From a virus (Duplodnaviria; Heunggongvirae; Uroviricota; Caudoviricetes), in IMG/VR virus record IMGVR_UViG_2698536435_000009: a stretch of DNA of 7,446 bases; one strand, 5' to 3'. The translations under genes and the position numbers were made by a program. The first letter of the stretch is position 1. Each line of letters begins with the position of its first letter. The notes beneath the pieces are model-generated. The model was not told the DNA's origin. It was given only the letters and a program-made list of their open reading frames with translations, and did not search any database. This document shows, piece after piece, positions 1,482 through 7,446 of the stretch.

Positions 1482-1547
1482 TGAACCATGGCCTCCGGAA
1501 CAAATAAGGGCAAAAATAACAACCACTATCGAAAGCTCACAAACTAA

Positions 1548-1581
1548 CCGCAGCACGTTCCTGCATACGACGTGTCTGCGG
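1548..1581. repeat. Imperfect 11-bp inverted repeat (CCGCAGCACGT ... ACGTGTCTGCGG) at the 3' junction of repeat unit A
   Basis: Read directly from the sequence. It is paralogous to the perfect palindrome at 4656-4688 and sits in a conserved roughly 70-bp module that also supplies the stop codon of the tfa-like gene. Confidence 0.5.
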
Positions 1582-1595
1582 CATAATCCCAATGA

Positions 1596-1865
1596 TTACT
1601 CCCTGACAGGATTTGCAGGCCACTCAATATCAGGTGCAGTTGATGTATCAACACGATTCAACAATACCCGATATTTATTCCATGCCTCCAGCAACGATCT
1701 TTCTTCCTCCGTTGCGATTTCCAGATCTACAGCATCCTGCAGTGGCGCAATATACTCACTAAATTCCTGGATGTAGAACTGTGTGGTGACGGTCTTCCAG
1801 CCATTCGGCTCCTGCTGTATCGAAGCATACTAGGCTATTTCAATATCGCTATGCTGCGGCAGCAT
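1596..1865 (-). pseudogene. Tail fibre assembly (Tfa)-like short protein, copy A, inactivated by an amber codon at codon 12
   Basis: About 90% DNA identity to the intact copy at 3654..3923. Translation gives [11 protein letters not shown] then TAG (plus-strand CTAGG at 1830-1834, where copy B has CCAGG). The rest stays in frame and keeps the conserved Tfa C-terminal motif ([25 protein letters not shown]). Confidence 0.6.
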
Positions 1866-1921
1866 TTAACCCCTTGTAATTCATCGCCATAATTGATTTA
1901 ATTCACAAATAAAACTATAAC

Positions 1922-2373
1922 ATGGTGAAATCAATGAAAACAAACACAGATGATGGGGCTAAAATTTACACACCACTTACCCTAAAGCTTTATGACTGGT
2001 GGGTTTTGGGAGTATCAAATCGGCTTGCATGGGGATGTCCTACAAAGGAACACCTTCTTCCACACTTTCTGGAACATTTAGGTAACAACCATCTGGATAT
2101 TGGTGTTGGAACTGGGTTTTACCTTACTCACGTACCTGAGAGTAGTCTGATATCTTTAATGGATTTGAACGAAGCTAGCCTGAACGCGGCATCTACAAGG
2201 GCTGGGGAATCAAAAATTAAACATAAAATTAGCCATGATGTTTTTGAACCTTATCCCGCGGCGTTACATGGTCAATTTGATTCCATTTCCATGTTTTACC
2301 TTCTTCACTGCCTGCCTGGAAATATATCTACAAAAAGCTGTGTAATACGCAATGCGGCGCAGGCCTTAACTGA
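1922..2373 (+). pseudogene. Class I SAM-dependent methyltransferase, copy A, truncated after codon 150 by the IS110-family element
   Basis: DNA is identical to 3980..4431 of the intact copy and the homology stops abruptly at 2373. The ORF track frame (1922..2461) reads on into the IS, adding an unrelated 29-aa tail. Motif I LDIGVGTGFY is present. Confidence 0.7.
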
Positions 2374-3653
2374 ATCAGGGAACTGGTTATTCTCATTTTT
2401 TATTTGTGACATTGTGGTTGTTGTGCGACAGACATTGCTATTCGGCCCATATCCCAGATAAAACCCGCCAGCTCACGTGCAACAGCAACAATTGTAATAT
2501 TGACATTCTTTCCTTTGGCCTGAAGTTTTCGATACCTCTTACAAAGCCTGAGTTGAGCATCCCATGCTCTGTCAATGACGGGGCGGGGTAAATTTTCCTG
2601 CCTTTTTTGTATTGCCGGACTGATGCGTGCCGGATGACGGTAACTCCACGCTGCCTCGACCAATAGCTTTCTGGCATAGCTGTTTCCGGCTTTGGTAATG
2701 CTGCCCTGATGTCTGCTTCCACCCGATGAATATTCTGATGGCGTGATACCAAACCATGACATCAGTTGTCGTGGATGTTCAAAACGGGTCAGATCACCCA
2801 GTTCAGAAATTAATCCAACCGCAGTAATAAACTGAATCCCTCGCATGGCTTGCAGCGCCTCTACTACCGGATACAGCCTCCATTCGGTAACGGCCTCCTT
2901 CAGGGCGGATTCCAGCCGTTCACATTGTGCCTGCCGATCTTCTATTGTACGACGGTGTTCGTCAAAAGCTAATTGTCGCCAGGGACTTTCGAATGAGTAT
3001 TTGCTGAGCCAGCGTCGGTGTGCAGGGCCCCAATCTGCTCGCCCGACATAATGGACCCCATGAACCAGAAGAAACGATTTCAGACGTTGCCTTGCATGCC
3101 GTAAATCATCGCGGGCAGATGCCCATGCCCGGGCCAAATCCCGGAATGCCTCATCTTCAATGCCGGGTACGTAGACAGCAGAAAGATCTCCTGCACGCAG
3201 TGAACGCACAAGTCTGATGGCATCACGGCGATCGGTTTTAACCCGCTCCCCCGGTTTTTTCGGGATAAGTGAGGGGGCGCAGACCATGCAGTCAAAACCG
3301 GATTTCACCAGCCGACGATAAAGTCCATAACCACAGGGCCCCGCTTCATAAACGATACTGACCTGCGATGACTTTGACCTGAGACGTTTACAAAGATTCT
3401 GAATATCAGTAGGTGATGTGCCAATTTTACCCATCAGTTCAACAGGTTCTGAATTGATAGCATAAGCGACAGTAATCGATTCTTTGTGAACATCTAACCC
3501 GACGTACAATGTGTTATTGTTGTTCATGCTGGCCTCCGTGGTGGAAATACCGGGGTGTAGCAACAGCTCACCCATGCGGCTCTGACAACGATGTTAACCC
3601 GCGTTAAATATCCCACGTTGGCCAGCATCTGTCTCACGGAAAGTCATACTGCC
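2374..3653 (-). mobile_element. IS110-family insertion sequence (about 1.28 kb, boundaries approximate) with no obvious terminal inverted repeats
   Basis: Bounded on the left by the break in methyltransferase homology at 2373/2374 and on the right by the tfa-like copy B (stop at 3654, homology to copy A resuming at 3676). It contains a single DEDD-type transposase ORF. The right boundary is uncertain within 3528-3675. Confidence 0.65.
2400..3527 (-). CDS. IS110-family (DEDD) transposase, about 375 aa
   Basis: ORF track 2400..3575. The preferred start is ATG 3525-3527 (MNNNNTLYVGLDVHK) with GGAGG 7 nt upstream. It has the N-terminal YVGLDVHK motif typical of IS110-family transposases and the C-terminal ITAVGLISELGDLTRFEHPRQLMSWFGITPSEYSSGGSRHQGSITKAGNSYARKLL region. 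Confidence 0.85.
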   Translation of the reverse strand: MNNNNTLYVGLDVHKESITVAYAINSEPVELMGKIGTSPTDIQNLCKRLRSKSSQVSIVYEAGPCGYGLYRRLVKSGFDCMVCAPSLIPKKPGERVKTDRRDAIRLVRSLRAGDLSAVYVPGIEDEAFRDLARAWASARDDLRHARQRLKSFLLVHGVHYVGRADWGPAHRRWLSKYSFESPWRQLAFDEHRRTIEDRQAQCERLESALKEAVTEWRLYPVVEALQAMRGIQFITAVGLISELGDLTRFEHPRQLMSWFGITPSEYSSGGSRHQGSITKAGNSYARKLLVEAAWSYRHPARISPAIQKRQENLPRPVIDRAWDAQLRLCKRYRKLQAKGKNVNITIVAVARELAGFIWDMGRIAMSVAQQPQCHK

Positions 3654-3923
3654 TTACATTGTGTCTGGTTCTTCCGGCCACTCAATATCAGGTGCAGTTG
3701 ATGTATCAACACGGTTCAGCAACACCCGATACTTCTTCCAGGCTTCCAGCAACGAGTTTTCTTCCTCCGTTGCGATCTCCAGATCTACAGCATCCTGAAG
3801 TGGCGCAATATGCTCACTGAATTCCTGGATGTAGAACTGTGTGGTGACGGTCTTCCAGCCATTCGGCTCCTGCTGTATCGAAGCATACCAGGCTATTTCA
3901 ATATCGCTATGCTGCGGCAGCAT
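3654..3923 (-). CDS. Short tail fibre assembly (Tfa)-like protein, 89 aa, intact copy B
   Basis: ORF track 3654..3923. The C-terminal 50 aa ([50 protein letters not shown]) align with the C-terminus of the full-length Tfa at 6583..7110 ([45 protein letters not shown]). The N-terminal 40 aa are unrelated. Confidence 0.55.
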
Positions 3924-3950
3924 TTAACCCCTTGTAATTCATCGCCATAA

Positions 3951-3979
3951 TTGATTTAATTCACAAATAAAACTATAAC
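3951..3979 (+). promoter_or_regulatory. Possible promoter for the methyltransferase gene (TTGATT, 17-nt spacer, TATAAC)
   Basis: Hexamers at 3951-3956 and 3974-3979 in the 56-bp divergent intergenic region. The -10 element abuts ATG 3980, so the real start may be the second ATG at 3992 on a very short leader. Weak, pattern only. Confidence 0.2.
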
Positions 3980-4648
3980 ATGGTGAAATCAATGAAAACA
4001 AACACAGATGATGGGGCTAAAATTTACACACCACTTACCCTAAAGCTTTATGACTGGTGGGTTTTGGGAGTATCAAATCGGCTTGCATGGGGATGTCCTA
4101 CAAAGGAACACCTTCTTCCACACTTTCTGGAACATTTAGGTAACAACCATCTGGATATTGGTGTTGGAACTGGGTTTTACCTTACTCACGTACCTGAGAG
4201 TAGTCTGATATCTTTAATGGATTTGAACGAAGCTAGCCTGAACGCGGCATCTACAAGGGCTGGGGAATCAAAAATTAAACATAAAATTAGCCATGATGTT
4301 TTTGAACCTTATCCCGCGGCGTTACATGGTCAATTTGATTCCATTTCCATGTTTTACCTTCTTCACTGCCTGCCTGGAAATATATCTACAAAAAGCTGTG
4401 TAATACGCAATGCGGCGCAGGCCTTAACTGACGATGGAACTCTATACGGAGCCACAATTCTTGGCGATGGAGTTGTGCACAATAGCTTCGGTCAAAAACT
4501 GATGCGCATTTACAATCAGAAAGGCATCTTTTCAAACACAAAAGATTCCGAAGAAGGCTTAACACATATACTCTCAGAGCATTTCGAGAATGTTAAAACC
4601 AGGGTTCAAGGTACTGTAGTAATGTTTTCCGCTTCAGGGAAAAAATAG
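3980..4648 (+). CDS. Class I SAM-dependent methyltransferase (Rossmann fold), 222 aa, intact copy B
   Basis: ORF track 3980..4648. Motif I LDIGVGTGFYL (hh-D-h-G-x-G-x-G), with an acidic residue after beta-2 (LMDLNEA). No DNA-methyltransferase catalytic motifs (DPPY/NPPY or PC) were seen. An alternative start is ATG 3992. Stop is TAG. Confidence 0.8.
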   Translation: MVKSMKTNTDDGAKIYTPLTLKLYDWWVLGVSNRLAWGCPTKEHLLPHFLEHLGNNHLDIGVGTGFYLTHVPESSLISLMDLNEASLNAASTRAGESKIKHKISHDVFEPYPAALHGQFDSISMFYLLHCLPGNISTKSCVIRNAAQALTDDGTLYGATILGDGVVHNSFGQKLMRIYNQKGIFSNTKDSEEGLTHILSEHFENVKTRVQGTVVMFSASGKK

Positions 4649-4655
4649 CATCCAA

Positions 4656-4688
4656 CCGCAGCACGTTCTTGCTTAAGACGTGCTGCGG
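4656..4688. repeat. Perfect 11-bp inverted repeat (CCGCAGCACGT, 11-nt loop, ACGTGCTGCGG) between the convergent methyltransferase and tfa fragment C
   Basis: Read directly from the sequence. It is GC-rich but has no adjacent U-tract on either strand, so it is not a canonical intrinsic terminator. Confidence 0.5.
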
Positions 4689-4702
4689 CATAATCCCAAT
4701 GA

Positions 4703-4797
4703 TTACTCCCTGACAGGGTTCGTAGGCCACTCAATATCAGGTGCAGTTGATGTATCAACACGGTTCAGCAACACCCGATACTTTTTCTAGGCTTCCA
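4703..4797 (-). pseudogene. Tfa-like C-terminal fragment, copy C, with an amber codon at the conserved Trp position
   Basis: Homologous to 3654-3745 of copy B. It reads EA then TAG then [27 protein letters not shown]. The TAG is plus-strand CTAGG at 4787-4791 where copy B has CCAGG. Homology to tfa ends at 4797. Confidence 0.55.
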
Positions 4798-4798
4798 C

Positions 4799-5029
4799 CA
4801 CCAGCACGACAAGATGCCGCATACAGTGACCCAGTCAGTCCAGTTTTCAGACAACCAGTGCGTCACCTTTTTGAAGGCGCTTTAAAGCACGTTTTAATCC
4901 AGGTCGGCCTGTCCTTGTTCCGCTTAATTTATCTTCAAATATTTGTTCATATCCTGCACAAACAAGAGCGTTTCGTTGCAGGTCTGTATTCTGGTCATTT
5001 GTTGATACCCTTACATAGCCAATCAGCAC
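4799..5029 (-). pseudogene. pin: Pin/Gin/Cin-family serine DNA invertase, N-terminal remnant (about 77 codons) with in-frame stops, fused to tfa fragment C
   Basis: From GTG 5027-5029 (GGAG 8 nt upstream) it reads MLIGYVRVSTNDQNTDLQRNALVCAGYEQIFEDKLSGTRTGRPGLKRALKRLQKGDALVV, matching the Gin/Pin N-terminus including the catalytic Ser in VRVSTNDQ. It then reads TGA-KLD-TGA-LGHCMRHLVVLVVEA against Gin WKLDRLGRSMKHLISLVGEL (Gin sequence from memory). The resolvase C-terminus and the helix-turn-helix are absent. Confidence 0.8.
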
Positions 5030-5083
5030 GCTGAATCTCCCGTCCAAAAGCACAAATCATGCCATGCAGGCCAGAAACCGCCA

Positions 5084-5109
5084 TTATCTAAAACCTCGGT
5101 TTACGAGAA
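5084..5109. other. gix/pix-type 26-bp recombination crossover site for a Gin/Pin-family invertase
   Basis: TTATCTAAAACCTCGGTTTACGAGAA, with the imperfect dyad AAACC-TC-GGTTT, closely resembles the Mu gix and e14 pix sites as I remember them. It lies between the invertase start and the tail-fibre variable segment, and the tail-fibre reading frame opens inside it at 5092. Confidence 0.7.
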
Positions 5110-5868
5110 CTCGGCACAAGCGGGGAGAAAATACCGTTACTCAGTACAGCGAATACCTGGACTAATCGACAAACATTCAGCGGTGGCCTTTCTGGTGAAC
5201 TATCCGGCAATGCTTCTACAGCTGCAAAATTAAAAACTGCCAGGAAAATAAGCAATGTGGCTTTTGATGGTTCCTCCGATATCACATTAAAAGCAAGTCA
5301 TGTTGGTGCGTTTGCCTTAGGGAAAACAGGAAGCACCGTTGCGAATGATAAAGCAGTTGGATGGAACTGGAGTAGCGGAGCCTATAACGCAACTATTAGT
5401 GGTGCATCAACGTTAATTATTCATTTTTATATGGGAGAAGGAAGTTGTCCTGCAGCTCAGTTTCGGATTAATTATAAAAATGGCGGTATTTTTTATCGTT
5501 CAGCCCGTGATGGTTATGGTTTTGAAGCCGACTGGTCCGAATTTTACACCACCAGAAAACCTTCAGCAGGAGATGTTGGTGCACTGCCGTTATCTGGTGG
5601 TCAACTGAATGGTGCACTGGGTATCGGAACATCCAGTGCTCTTGGCGGTAATTCGATTGTATTGGGTGATAATGACACGGGCTTTAAACAAAAAGGCGAT
5701 GGTAATCTGGATGTTTATGCTAATAACGTCCATGTTATGCGCTTTGTCTCCGGAAGCATTCAAAGTAATAAAACCATAAATATTACGGGACGTGTTAATC
5801 CCTCGGATTACGGTAACTTTGATTCCCGCTATGTGAGAGATGTCAGACTTGGCACACGAGTTGTTTAG
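5092..5868 (+). CDS. Tail fibre protein variable C-terminal segment (Sv, silent orientation), with no own start, ending at an in-frame TAG; the frame continues 5872..6018
   Basis: The open frame begins within the crossover site (NLGLRELGTSGEKIPLLSTANTW...) and covers ORF track 5257..5868 (GTG-initiated). It is Gly/Ser-rich and fibre-like. After TAG 5866-5868 the same frame encodes 48 more aa ending [17 protein letters not shown], homologous to the C-terminus of the minus-strand copy ([17 protein letters not shown]). Confidence 0.6.
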   Translation, partial: NLGLRELGTSGEKIPLLSTANTWTNRQTFSGGLSGELSGNASTAAKLKTARKISNVAFDGSSDITLKASHVGAFALGKTGSTVANDKAVGWNWSSGAYNATISGASTLIIHFYMGEGSCPAAQFRINYKNGGIFYRSARDGYGFEADWSEFYTTRKPSAGDVGALPLSGGQLNGALGIGTSSALGGNSIVLGDNDTGFKQKGDGNLDVYANNVHVMRFVSGSIQSNKTINITGRVNPSDYGNFDSRYVRDVRLGTRVV

Positions 5869-6020
5869 ACCATGAAGAAAGGCGTGATGTATGAAAAATC
5901 AGGCCATGTAATCACGGGGCTTGGTATTATCGGTGAAGTCGATGGTGATGATCCGGCAGTATTCAGACCAATACAAAAGTTAATTAACGGAACATGGTAT
6001 AACGTATCGCAGGTATAATC

Positions 6021-6554
6021 ATGCAGCATTTAAAAAACATTGTCGCAGGTAATCCAAAAACCGTTGAACAATACCAGCTAACAAAGAATTTTGATGTTAT
6101 CTGGTTATGGTCCGAAGATGGAAAAAATTGGCATGAGGAATTAAAAAACTTTCAGGAGGATACAATAAAACTGGCTTACACAGTTGAGGGAATAATTATT
6201 GCTATAGACAAGGATGTATCAGCAATTAATCCAGAAGGTTTAAGTGTCGTTGAGTTGCCTGATATTACAGCAAATCGCCGGGCTGATATTTCGGGCAACT
6301 GGATGTTCAAAGATGGTGCGGTGATAAAGCGAACTTATACCGAGGAAGAGCAAAGGCAACAAGCGGAAAATGAAAAGCAGAGCCTGCTGCAGCTCGTCAG
6401 GGATAAAACCCAGCTGTGGGACTCTCAGCTACAGCTGGGCATCATTTCCGATGAGAATAAACAAAAATTAACCGAGTGGATGCTCTATGCGCAGAAGGTT
6501 GAATCCACAGACACCTCCAGCCTGCCAGTAACGTTTCCCGAACAACCAGAATGA
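6021..6554 (+). CDS. Tail fibre assembly protein (Tfa), 177 aa
   Basis: ORF track 6021..6554. ATG follows 2 nt after the TAA of the upstream tail-fibre frame. It is paralogous to the minus-strand Tfa ([22 protein letters not shown] versus [21 protein letters not shown]) and ends with the conserved PEQPE-type terminus. Confidence 0.85.
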
Positions 6555-6557
6555 GAG

Positions 6558-6587
6558 AAGGCCCGCTATCGGGCCTTAATTTTTATT
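6558..6587. terminator. Bidirectional intrinsic terminator between the convergent tfa genes
   Basis: Perfect 8-bp stem AAGGCCCG, CTAT loop, CGGGCCTT (6558-6577), followed by AATTTTTATT on the plus strand, with a T-rich stretch on the other side for the minus strand. Confidence 0.55.
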
Positions 6588-7110
6588 CAGGCTTTTGTGG
6601 CCATTCAGGATTTGCCGTATCCACACGGCTGACCAGAACACTGTAGCGTTCCCATGCTTCCAGTCGTGTGCGTTCCTCGTCTGTTGCCATATTCAGCCTG
6701 ACAGCTCGTTCCAGCGGCTGGATGACTGATTCAGCTTCGGAAAGCAATGCGGCCTTTTGTGATTCGGCCTGTTGTTGCAGTTCCTGTTCTGTATATTCCC
6801 TCTTTACTACTTTACCATCCAGAAACATCCATTTTCCGTTATTGTCTGCGTGACGATTTGCCGTAATATCAGGAACTTCAACTATGCTTAGCCCTTCAGG
6901 ATTAATAGTTGAAACGTCTTTACTGACAGCAACGATGATGTTGTTCTCATCGTAAGCAATTTTTATGGTGTCTGGCTGAAAATTCTTTTGTTCCTCATAC
7001 CAGTTTTTGCCATCTTCGCAAAAGAGCCATACCACGCCCGCTTTTTTAGTTAGCTGGTATTGTTCCGGTGTTTTCGGATTCCCGGCCTTAATATTTTTCA
7101 GGTGCATCAT
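6583..7110 (-). CDS. Tail fibre assembly protein (Tfa), inverted paralogue, about 175 aa
   Basis: ORF track 6583..7146. The preferred start is ATG 7108-7110 ([11 protein letters not shown]) with GGGGAG 8 nt upstream, sitting 1 nt after the TAA of the tail-fibre gene. The C-terminus is [13 protein letters not shown]. Confidence 0.85.
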
Positions 7111-7111
7111 C

Positions 7112-7446
7112 TTAAACACTCCCCACGTTGTACCATATTCCCCCAATCAATTTCTGAATTGGCCTTCTGGCAACAGTGTCGACAATATCATCCGCATTGC
7201 TGTTAATTGCGGCTGTTAAAACATAACCTGACGCATCGCCAAAGCCGTAGTCGCGCCATACGTTTTTATATTCAATGCTGCCAAGACGAATATCCCGAAC
7301 GACATGATTATGCAGCCATGTGCTTAACCAGTTGTTTTCCCACACTGAACCATAAATATCGCCACTAGACGCAACTTGCGCACCACTTCCCAGCGCAAAT
7401 TGAGGTAGCCTGAGTTTAACGGACACTCCTTCCTGAAATAGAATGG
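7112..7446 (-). CDS. Tail fibre protein variable C-terminal segment (expressed orientation), partial, continuing beyond the right edge of the window
   Basis: ORF track 7112..7426 is only GTG-delimited, and the frame stays open to position 7446. The C-terminus ...[63 protein letters not shown] is homologous to the plus-strand silent copy but is not interrupted. Confidence 0.75.

Follow-up and report, generated by a model that had tools for sequence, protein, structure and literature searches.

Described Invertible Cassettes and Their Likeness to This Locus

The G segment of phage Mu with its invertase gene gin (AF083977) shared with the present locus the order of invertase, 54-bp spacer, 26-bp site, S′-type segment, U′-type gene and, in the convergent direction, U-type gene and S-type segment; in complete form, a second site lies inside the fibre gene. 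The stretch of DNA analyzed here, referred to as the window, is 7,446 nucleotides long. Its invertase stub was identical to Gin at 57 of 60 residues, and its two chaperones were 85% (U′) and 82% (U) identical to those of Mu. The DNA identity was 92.5% over the gin 5′ end, the spacer and gix (4839-5104 in the window) and 81.6% over the chaperone pair. However, the cassette here belongs to a lambdoid side tail fibre, whereas that of Mu serves the S protein, and the variable segments were mostly unrelated in sequence to those of Mu. The window also contained an invertase stub only, and neither the second site nor the constant part of the fibre.

The B segment of Shigella with its invertase gene pinB (Tominaga et al., 1991, J Bacteriol 173:4079; D00660) is reportedly similar to G-gin, with a different 5′ constant region. 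Its sites, bixL and bixR, were found at 26 of 26 positions in Shigella sonnei-type sibling genomes of the window. According to PMC3241671, D00660 is an S. sonnei segment that works in this species. Its two sites span 3,189 bp and its pinB is intact (PMC3241671, Table 4), whereas the sibling segment was 2,942 bp long and its invertase was truncated.

The P segment of the cryptic prophage e14 likewise carries tail-fibre parts that can be inverted, with both orientations among sequenced E. coli genomes, and it is flipped by PinE and also in trans by PinQ from another prophage (PMC12529663). It differs from the present cassette in its AA core and other half-sites (pixL and pixR; PMC3241671, Table 3), in its length of 1.8 kb and in its intact PinE. 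A role in phage defence has been shown for e14, whereas such a role is impossible in the single-site state of the window. A cassette in a P2-like prophage (E. coli DFK.1, NZ_CP104848.1) had ~88% DNA identity to that of the window, and comprised a 199-aa recombinase, a silent fibre fragment, two convergent chaperone genes and two inverted sites, one of which was a single base from the site in the window. It differed in its myovirus-type (P2-like) tail module and its complete invertase. A prophage of the DFK.1 type is plausibly the source of the cassette, or of an enzyme acting in trans, in E. coli.

We consider it highly probable that the region is the invertase-proximal part of an invertible cassette of the Mu G-segment/Shigella B-segment type, which is dead in this genome. 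What the analysis showed directly was the nature of the site, an anatomy like that of Mu, the defects, a single site in those genomes that share the right-hand joint, and, in relatives, inversion with exchange of half-sites. The basic design is already known, and the region is an ordinary fossil of a flip-switch for tail-fibre tips.

The Crossover Site

The 26-bp Din-family crossover site, TTATCTAAAACCTCGGTTTACGAGAA, was located at 5084-5109 (unstranded) and was the sole copy in the window, even when three mismatches were allowed (expectation from shuffles, 0.00); no second Din-type site was found in the window at the same tolerance. Its reverse complement was TTCTCGTAAACC GA GGTTTTAGATAA. The site fitted the family consensus (TTC...AAAC, core dinucleotide, GTTT...), with a GA core as in gix and bix, and was equal to the published bixR at 24 of 26 positions, differing at two (reference sequences of bixL and bixR from Table 3 of PMC3241671). 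Among the siblings, the partner site was identical to bixL (TTCCTGTAAACCGAGGTATTCGATAA), and the invertase-side site of a flipped sibling was identical to bixR. The gap between the site and the start of the gin-like gene was 54 bp, the same as in Mu. The stop codon TAA at 5089-5091 lay inside the site, and the fibre frame began at 5092.

Judged by its sequence, 5084-5109 is a true Din-family (Gin/Pin/PinB) crossover site. The earlier note on this DNA had described a 26-bp gix-like site at this place, a tail-fibre frame opening inside it and a system of the Gin/Pin type; all of this was confirmed, the family assignment by the match to published Din-family sites and by the Mu G-gin gene order and gap. 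A shufflon, with an Rci tyrosine recombinase and multiple sfx sites, was rejected, given a single Din-type site and a stub of the serine (Resolvase) type.

The Invertase Stub and a Candidate Enhancer

The 5′ remnant of a gin/pin-family serine invertase gene occupied 4793-5029 on the minus strand (Pfam Resolvase and Mu Gin match). From the start codon GTG at 5029, 60 codons were intact (4850-5029). They were followed by TGA at 4847-4849 in the place of a Trp codon of intact genes, and by another stop four codons later. The homology stopped near 4793 (about codon 79), where it was joined to a tfa 3′ remnant, and the 3′ two-thirds of the invertase had been replaced. The stops and the truncation were read from an alignment to the intact 199-aa recombinase of the P2-like prophage. 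The Pfam Resolvase profile was matched (E 2.9e-15) at positions 2-69 of 145 only, and neither Pfam nor the alignment to the intact recombinase found anything left of the C-terminal DNA-binding domain in the stub. A full small serine invertase, with both catalytic and DNA-binding domains, was therefore not present next to the site. On the evidence of these stops and the truncation, the neighbouring invertase is a pseudogene stub, which was overlooked when an invertase gene was reported here.

A candidate Fis-dependent recombinational enhancer was detected by motif scan at 4940-5010 (unstranded) within the stub. Two Fis-like 15-mers were centred at 5001 and 4952 with a spacing of 49 bp, which is similar to the native enhancer geometry of Hin, and the middle of the crossover site was ~95 bp away from the nearer one. 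The enhancers of Gin, Hin and Cin are situated within the invertase gene. The stub may still supply a Fis enhancer.

The Silent Fibre Segment and the Convergent Chaperone Genes

On the plus strand, 5092-6018 (308 codons; Pfam gp37_C) encoded one of two alternative C-termini of a lambdoid side tail fibre, the silent one. Its product was nearly identical to residues 626-934, the last 309, of an intact 934-aa E. coli prophage fibre. An in-frame amber codon (TAG) was found at 5866-5868, a position occupied by Gln in the E. coli homologue. In the flipped siblings, the counterpart of this segment was fused to the constant part to give 875 aa, and a separate 48-aa ORF followed. The claim that the set adjoining the invertase is the silent copy was borne out, while the amber codon in it had been missed.

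The silent segment was followed at 6021-6554 on the plus strand by its cognate tail-fibre assembly chaperone gene, the counterpart of Mu U′ (177 aa), whose product matched the full Pfam Caudo_TAP profile (E 4.8e-34) and was equal to Mu U′ at 150 of 177 residues. A further gene of this kind, corresponding to Mu U and encoding 175 aa, was located at 6583-7110 on the minus strand, with a full-length Caudo_TAP match (E 7.9e-37) and 144 of 175 residues equal to Mu U. Two alternative fibre C-terminal segments, each with its own Tfa/U-type chaperone, were thus present as had been proposed, the right-hand one being shortened; the two sets converged, lying tail to tail rather than head to head. Pfam bore out each component of the anatomy. 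In the gap that separates the two chaperone genes, the consensus scan detected a terminator-like hairpin at 6558-6577 on the plus strand, with a fold of -22.5 kcal/mol (z = -3.9). The shared terminator of the earlier reading was present to this extent, but it was not demonstrated to be bidirectional, because the T-run was limited to the plus strand, and only this strand passed the scan.

The Right-hand Segment and the IS600 Joint

The 3′ end of the other alternative C-terminal segment, consisting of the last 95 codons and the stop, was found at 7112-7400 on the minus strand. The whole segment has ~301 codons, as translated in full from sibling L006. In sibling L002, whose fibre gene is 2,757 nt long, nt 2469-2757 were 100% identical to these positions. 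The following 46 bp (7401-7446, unstranded), which start with TGAGGTAGCC..., were the terminal part of IS600 (IS3 family). In sibling L001, the element continued from the joint of the window and was complete, with matching terminal inverted repeats and 99.7% identity to copies annotated as "IS3-like element IS600 family transposase." The minus-strand fibre set had been drawn to 7446, but the fibre sequence stopped at 7400. The last bases of the window therefore lay inside IS600, the joint at 7400/7401 fell 600 bp short of the predicted position of the partner site, and the constant N-terminal part of the fibre was missing from the window.

Partner Site and Orientation in Sibling Genomes

Thirteen distinct S. 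sonnei-type sibling genomes were compared, including CP026802 (S. sonnei ATCC 29930); eight had the IS600 joint and five did not. The five siblings without the IS600 cut had two sites each, two in the orientation of the window and three flipped, and the same invertase stub was found in all five. In whole-element siblings, the inverted partner site was located 2,916 bp rightward, inside a 918-aa fibre gene, which predicts a window-equivalent position of 8000-8025. The constant part of the fibre (Pfam phage_tail_N) was present in L002 (918 aa), in L006 (875 aa) and in the E. coli relatives. Two inverted sites with the same core around the segment were thus found in five siblings and in the E. 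coli relatives but not in the window. In siblings of opposite orientation, the half-sites had been exchanged inside a central stretch of 12 bp containing the core dinucleotide; the crossover was mapped to this interval (site positions 10-21), which is broader than the dinucleotide.

The IS600 joint was identical in its eight siblings. Of the 2,757 nt of the fibre gene, these kept only the final 289. No second crossover site was found within 10 kb in any of the eight, all had the same orientation as the window, and the same sequence flanked the site on both sides in each of them. The right flank beyond 7446 was deduced from these eight genomes. The earlier note had placed the partner site and the constant part to the right of 7446, and had named beforehand the lack of an inverted partner within a few kb rightward as the observation that would count against it. 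The placement was correct for the whole-element siblings. For the genomes with the IS600 joint it failed by the note's own test, since eight same-joint siblings had a single site within 10 kb. Both orientations were found in siblings and E. coli relatives; in the lineage of the window, a single orientation was found in 8 of 8 genomes, as an element with one site would lead one to expect. The genome of the window probably has no partner site elsewhere, but an IS-mediated inversion instead of a deletion could have moved the partner site, along with the 5′ part of the fibre gene, to a distant place in the chromosome.

Here, three explanations other than a dead cassette were weighed. The first is a host-range switch that still works under the control of the adjacent invertase, its partner site and constant part lying slightly beyond the right end of the window. 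The complete architecture of close relatives and the occurrence of both orientations in nature speak for it. However, the invertase is reduced to 60 codons followed by stops, IS600 cuts the right-hand segment at the end of the window, the same-joint genomes have one site in 10 kb, 289 nt of the fibre gene and one orientation throughout, and the silent segment carries an amber codon. A working switch was therefore largely refuted and is very improbable.

We instead propose the following history for a dead cassette, which forms the end of the stf-tfa (side-tail-fibre) operon in a defective lambdoid prophage next to trpA, on an S. sonnei-type chromosome. In the complete element, a Din-family serine invertase would work on two inverted 26-bp sites ~2.9 kb apart, cutting at the central GA/TC dinucleotide and rotating the segment. 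Two fibre C-termini of ~300 codons, each with a chaperone gene of its own behind it, would be available, and the rotation would join one or the other to the constant N-terminal part. In the window, there remain the 60-codon invertase stub, one site and the silent segment with its amber codon. The IS600 joint apparently marks the loss of two-thirds of the right-hand segment, together with the partner site and the constant part. Because of the stub, the single site, the loss at the joint and the amber codon, the cassette appears to be locked in its present orientation as a relic in decay, with no fibre expressed. The window represents a well-understood phage device in advanced decay, of the sort that IS elements typically bring about in Shigella prophages, and its best use is as a negative control, as the one-site genomes were all fixed in a single orientation.

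The second explanation also takes the cassette to be locally dead, but supposes that its orphan site and enhancer pair with a Din-type site of another prophage through an invertase encoded elsewhere in the chromosome, leading to large chromosomal inversions or deletions. Din invertases do cross systems and prophages, since the P segment of e14 is also inverted by PinQ, which Qin encodes (PMC12529663), and a B segment-pinB with matching sites is functional in S. sonnei (D00660; PMC3241671). The site was well preserved, as were the first 180 nt of the invertase gene, and large rearrangements were found around the locus in S. sonnei siblings L004 and L013. However, the joints of these rearrangements fell at IS copies and not at the crossover site, and both sides of the site were unchanged in all eight single-site genomes. 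For an invertasome to assemble, moreover, a single supercoiled domain must normally hold the enhancer together with both sites (PMC3798978). We regard such a role of the orphan site as quite unlikely.

Relatives in E. coli and Proposed Inversion by a Borrowed Enzyme

E. coli strains 4/1-1 and 4/0 both had the same trpA-adjacent element. Their flanks were 100% identical (6,455 and 3,228 bp), and a 3.1-kb segment was inverted between them. The invertase was truncated in both of these E. coli loci, with the same stub as in the siblings. Among complete E. coli genomes, the junction of the window type was found in 239 and the flipped junction in 143; both queries contained the DNA that replaced the 3′ part of the invertase. 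About 380 E. coli genomes kept both sites, in both orientations with swapped half-sites.

The third explanation attributes the differences in orientation to RecA-dependent recombination between short inverted repeats, or to assembly choice. The two sites are indeed imperfect inverted repeats, and the first codons of the variable segments are alike (NLGLRE vs. NLGLQE). However, the joint identity was only about 12-14 bp, which is far below what RecA needs for efficient exchange. The exchange also fell inside Din-family sites that are already published, where their core dinucleotide lies, and the same reciprocal products were found in S. sonnei and in complete E. coli genomes. Neither RecA nor assembly is at all likely to account for these differences.

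The same cassette still flips in E. coli ST131 and S. sonnei despite the stub invertase, and the whole-element relatives were probably inverted by an invertase from elsewhere. The 3′ half of a Din invertase gene was found in 3,166 of 5,426 E. coli genomes, which shows only that donors are frequent in E. coli and does not imply their possession by particular strains. In S. sonnei, no trans-acting enzyme was identified, as a protein search for an intact invertase with the 60-aa stub gave only fragments of ≤105 aa. The candidates for a borrowed enzyme are PinB in S. sonnei and the invertase of the P2-like prophage in E. coli. Our proposal is that the relatives in S. sonnei and in ~380 complete E. 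coli genomes form a switch family that has no recombinase of its own and is flipped by a borrowed prophage invertase, the conserved first 180 nt of the stub being kept for the Fis enhancer that they hold in cis. Within this family the window would count as dead, and its orphan site and enhancer might still be recognized by the borrowed enzyme. We hold the chances of this proposal to be evenly balanced. A 2025 study showed that a cryptic-prophage invertase flips the fibre cassette of another prophage, blocking the adsorption of phage T2 (PMC12529663). Together with the stub-bearing relatives in both orientations, this cross-prophage flipping suggests that trans-driven inversion of "dead" prophage fibres may be common, and this is testable.

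Left-hand Surroundings

The joint of ISSso6 in the left-hand part of the window was absent from all loci examined, and the two possible products of the methyltransferase/ISSso6 joint had no exact-protein match. Neither this joint nor the IS600 joint had a match in DNA scans of GTDB representatives. The ISSso6 insert itself occupied 2374-3675 and was surrounded by a 756-bp repeat. An explanation of this repeat by a single Campbell-type crossover was rejected, because its left copy carried none of the SNPs of the second locus.

Layout of the Prophage Remnant

The window was a decayed prophage end within an IS-rich chromosome. Insertion sequences bounded it on both sides, with an IS1 end (1–51) on the left and the terminal 46 bp of IS600 (7401–7446) on the right. 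Ash-like and Rha genes (355–1184) were followed by a SAM-methyltransferase cargo module (1546–4800), which carried 3′ remnants of tail-fiber chaperone genes at both flanks. Its class I SAM-methyltransferase gene (3980–4648) was bracketed by three such remnants (1546–1865, 3654–3923, and 4654–4800), and ISSso6 of the IS110 family (2374–3675) interrupted the module. Exact-protein look-ups with both complete chaperone proteins retrieved 16 sibling loci from 13 distinct genomes (4.8–5.0 Mb), including Shigella sonnei ATCC 29930 (CP026802). These loci matched the window at 99.6–100%, and the element adjoined the trp operon in all of them. S. sonnei is thus very probably the organism from which the window came.

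Crossover Site and Fiber Cassette

The 26-bp site at 5084–5109 occurred once in the window with three mismatches allowed, and no copy was expected by chance. Its reverse complement, TTCTCGTAAACC GA GGTTTTAGATAA, was identical at 24 of 26 positions to bixR, the crossover site of the Shigella B segment that is tabulated among the Din-family sites (PMC3241671). The upstream frame was closed by a TAA within the site, and the fiber frame opened at 5092. The layout copied that of phage Mu, in the order of gin, a 54-bp spacer, gix, S′, U′, and convergent U and S. The DNA identity to the 5′ end of Mu gin plus gix was 92.5%; the invertase stub shared 57 of 60 residues with Gin, and the two chaperones were 85 and 82% identical to U′ and U, respectively. 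The element descends from cassettes of the Mu G-gin and Shigella B-pinB kind and shares their mode of action. The earlier note was right to assign it to the Gin/Pin family, a design that is already known and holds nothing new, and also to call the fiber set adjoining the invertase the silent copy.

The 308 codons from 5092 in the silent segment (5092–6018, plus strand) were nearly identical to an intact E. coli prophage fiber of 934 aa over its C-terminal 309 residues, and a TAG at 5866–5868 replaced a Gln codon of this homolog. Both chaperone genes (6021–6554, plus; 6583–7110, minus) encoded full-length Caudo_TAP proteins. The minus-strand fiber segment (7112–7400) ended at 7400 with 95 of ~301 codons left. 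The site, the silent segment, and the chaperones were as the earlier note had described. The two gene sets, said to lie head to head, are actually convergent, the hairpin at 6558–6577, said to be bidirectional, passed as a terminator on the plus strand only, and the defects had been missed.

The invertase gene (4793–5029, minus strand) ran for 60 codons to a TGA at the Trp position of intact genes, and a second stop followed four codons later. Its homology ended near codon 79, at the fusion to the third chaperone remnant (4654–4800); the cargo module took the place of the 3′ two-thirds of the invertase. Identity to intact pin and gin genes was 92–96% over the first 180–190 nt of the stub and only ~65% over nt 190–237. 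Selection for the enhancer, conversion by intact gene copies, or a mosaic ancestry could explain this sharp change. The stub held a pair of Fis-like motifs as a candidate enhancer, a motif match only. They were separated by 49 bp, with the nearer one ~95 bp from the site, and this geometry matched that of native Hin.

The switch had been taken as live, which is wrong for this genome given the stub invertase, the amber codon in the silent segment, and the IS600 cut at 7400/7401. Three defining features, an intact invertase, two sites, and the constant part, were missing from the window. The element is best called a remnant of a Din-family cassette, not a functional member of the family.

Partner Site in Sibling Loci

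All sibling loci were scanned for the site, allowing up to six mismatches. The window orientation was found together with a second site, inverted and at a distance of 2,916 bp, in two genomes (L002/L010 and L015). This second site was identical to the published bixL at 26 of 26 positions and would fall at 8000–8025 in window coordinates. It lay within an intact 918-aa fiber gene in L002/L010, and the fiber gene of L015 was itself broken around nt 350 by an IS copy. The segment was flipped in three other genomes (L006, L008, and L016).

Eight genomes (L001, L003, L004, L005, L007, L009, L012, and L014) shared the IS600 joint exactly as in the window, and all eight had its orientation. Each had one site, and no second site was found within 10 kb on either side at up to six mismatches. 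Their fiber gene was reduced to the last 289 of 2,757 nt, and lysis genes or other rearranged DNA lay past IS600. The right flank of the window was deduced from these eight siblings with the identical joint rather than from its own DNA. Thus, the partner site and constant part predicted just to the right belonged to the ancestral element, as in L002/L010 and L015, and the prediction failed for the lineage of the window. The DNA beyond IS600 varied among siblings, with lysis genes found in L001 and genes of the hok/rem region in L004 and L013, which pointed to further IS-mediated rearrangements.

Inversion in Relatives and Proposed Source of the Invertase

The two sibling sites differed at positions 6, 9, 22, and 23, and their outer and inner half-sites were recombined reciprocally in the flipped genomes. 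This placed the exchange within positions 10–21, including the central GA/TC dinucleotide. E. coli strains 4/1-1 and 4/0, Swedish isolates of which one was faecal and one came from a urinary tract infection, carried the same trpA-adjacent element and appear alongside ST131 reference genomes (PMC10866875). Their flanks were 100% identical (6,455 and 3,228 bp), and a 3.1-kb segment was inverted with the half-sites swapped; this fiber cassette inversion (6435–9541 in loci L019 and L020 of these two strains) was the sole difference across the 12.7-kb locus. Two-site genomes in both orientations and single-site genomes that are all locked constitute a natural experiment, which, together with the indicated flipping in the absence of an own invertase, is of mild interest.

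In a set of 5,426 complete E. coli genomes, the window-type junction was found in 239 and the flipped junction in 143. Both queries took in ~200 bp of the DNA replacing the 3′ part of the invertase, so these numbers count only elements with a window-like truncated invertase. The stub sequence of the window was present in all five two-site S. sonnei siblings, the recombinase gene of both inspected E. coli loci was annotated without its C-terminus, and both orientations occurred among these stub-bearing loci. Once the gene was truncated, inversion would therefore depend on an enzyme from another source, and we infer that the relatives use an invertase encoded at another locus. Precedents and candidates for such an enzyme are known. 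Din-type invertase 3′ halves were detected in 3,166 of the 5,426 genomes, and intact relatives were found in P2-like prophages. The e14 segment is inverted by PinQ, which is encoded in prophage Qin (PMC12529663), and the B segment-pinB entry D00660 is from S. sonnei and functional there (PMC3241671). Both orientations among stub-bearing loci indicated that a widespread cassette goes on flipping without its own invertase.

In a complete element, a Din-family serine invertase bound to both sites would cut at the central dinucleotide and turn the segment around with the help of a Fis-bound enhancer, the established mechanism of Gin and Hin (PMC3798978). Inversion would swap the last ~300 codons of the side tail fiber together with the cognate chaperone. 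This mechanism cannot run in the genome of the window. With one site, no fiber gene to serve, and no enzyme at the locus, its cassette is locked and silent.

Cargo Module and ISSso6

Within 1618–4431, a 756-bp imperfect direct repeat flanked ISSso6 and consisted of a chaperone-gene remnant and the 5′ part of the methyltransferase gene. Its right copy was a chimera, in which 2375–3819 was of the type of a second S. sonnei prophage remnant (L024–L026, beside ipaH and dinI) and the sequence from 3979 resembled the trpA locus in type. The joint on the left (2373/2374) was not found in 26 sibling loci or any searched record; it reflects either a genuine rearrangement that involved two paralogous cargo modules or a chimeric assembly. 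The module was shared by E. coli prophages at the trpA and potB loci and by the S. sonnei ipaH locus. In L024–L026 (7317–9944), the paralogous methyltransferase module directly adjoined an ipaH-type effector gene (LRR_TTSS and NEL domains), a position held at the trpA locus by the invertible cassette. Two chaperone remnants carried a TAG (1830–1832 and 4796–4798) at a codon that read TGG in the third copy and in the siblings, and the change at 1831 was one of just two differences from L001 over 1–2373. These TAG codons are minor signs of ongoing decay.
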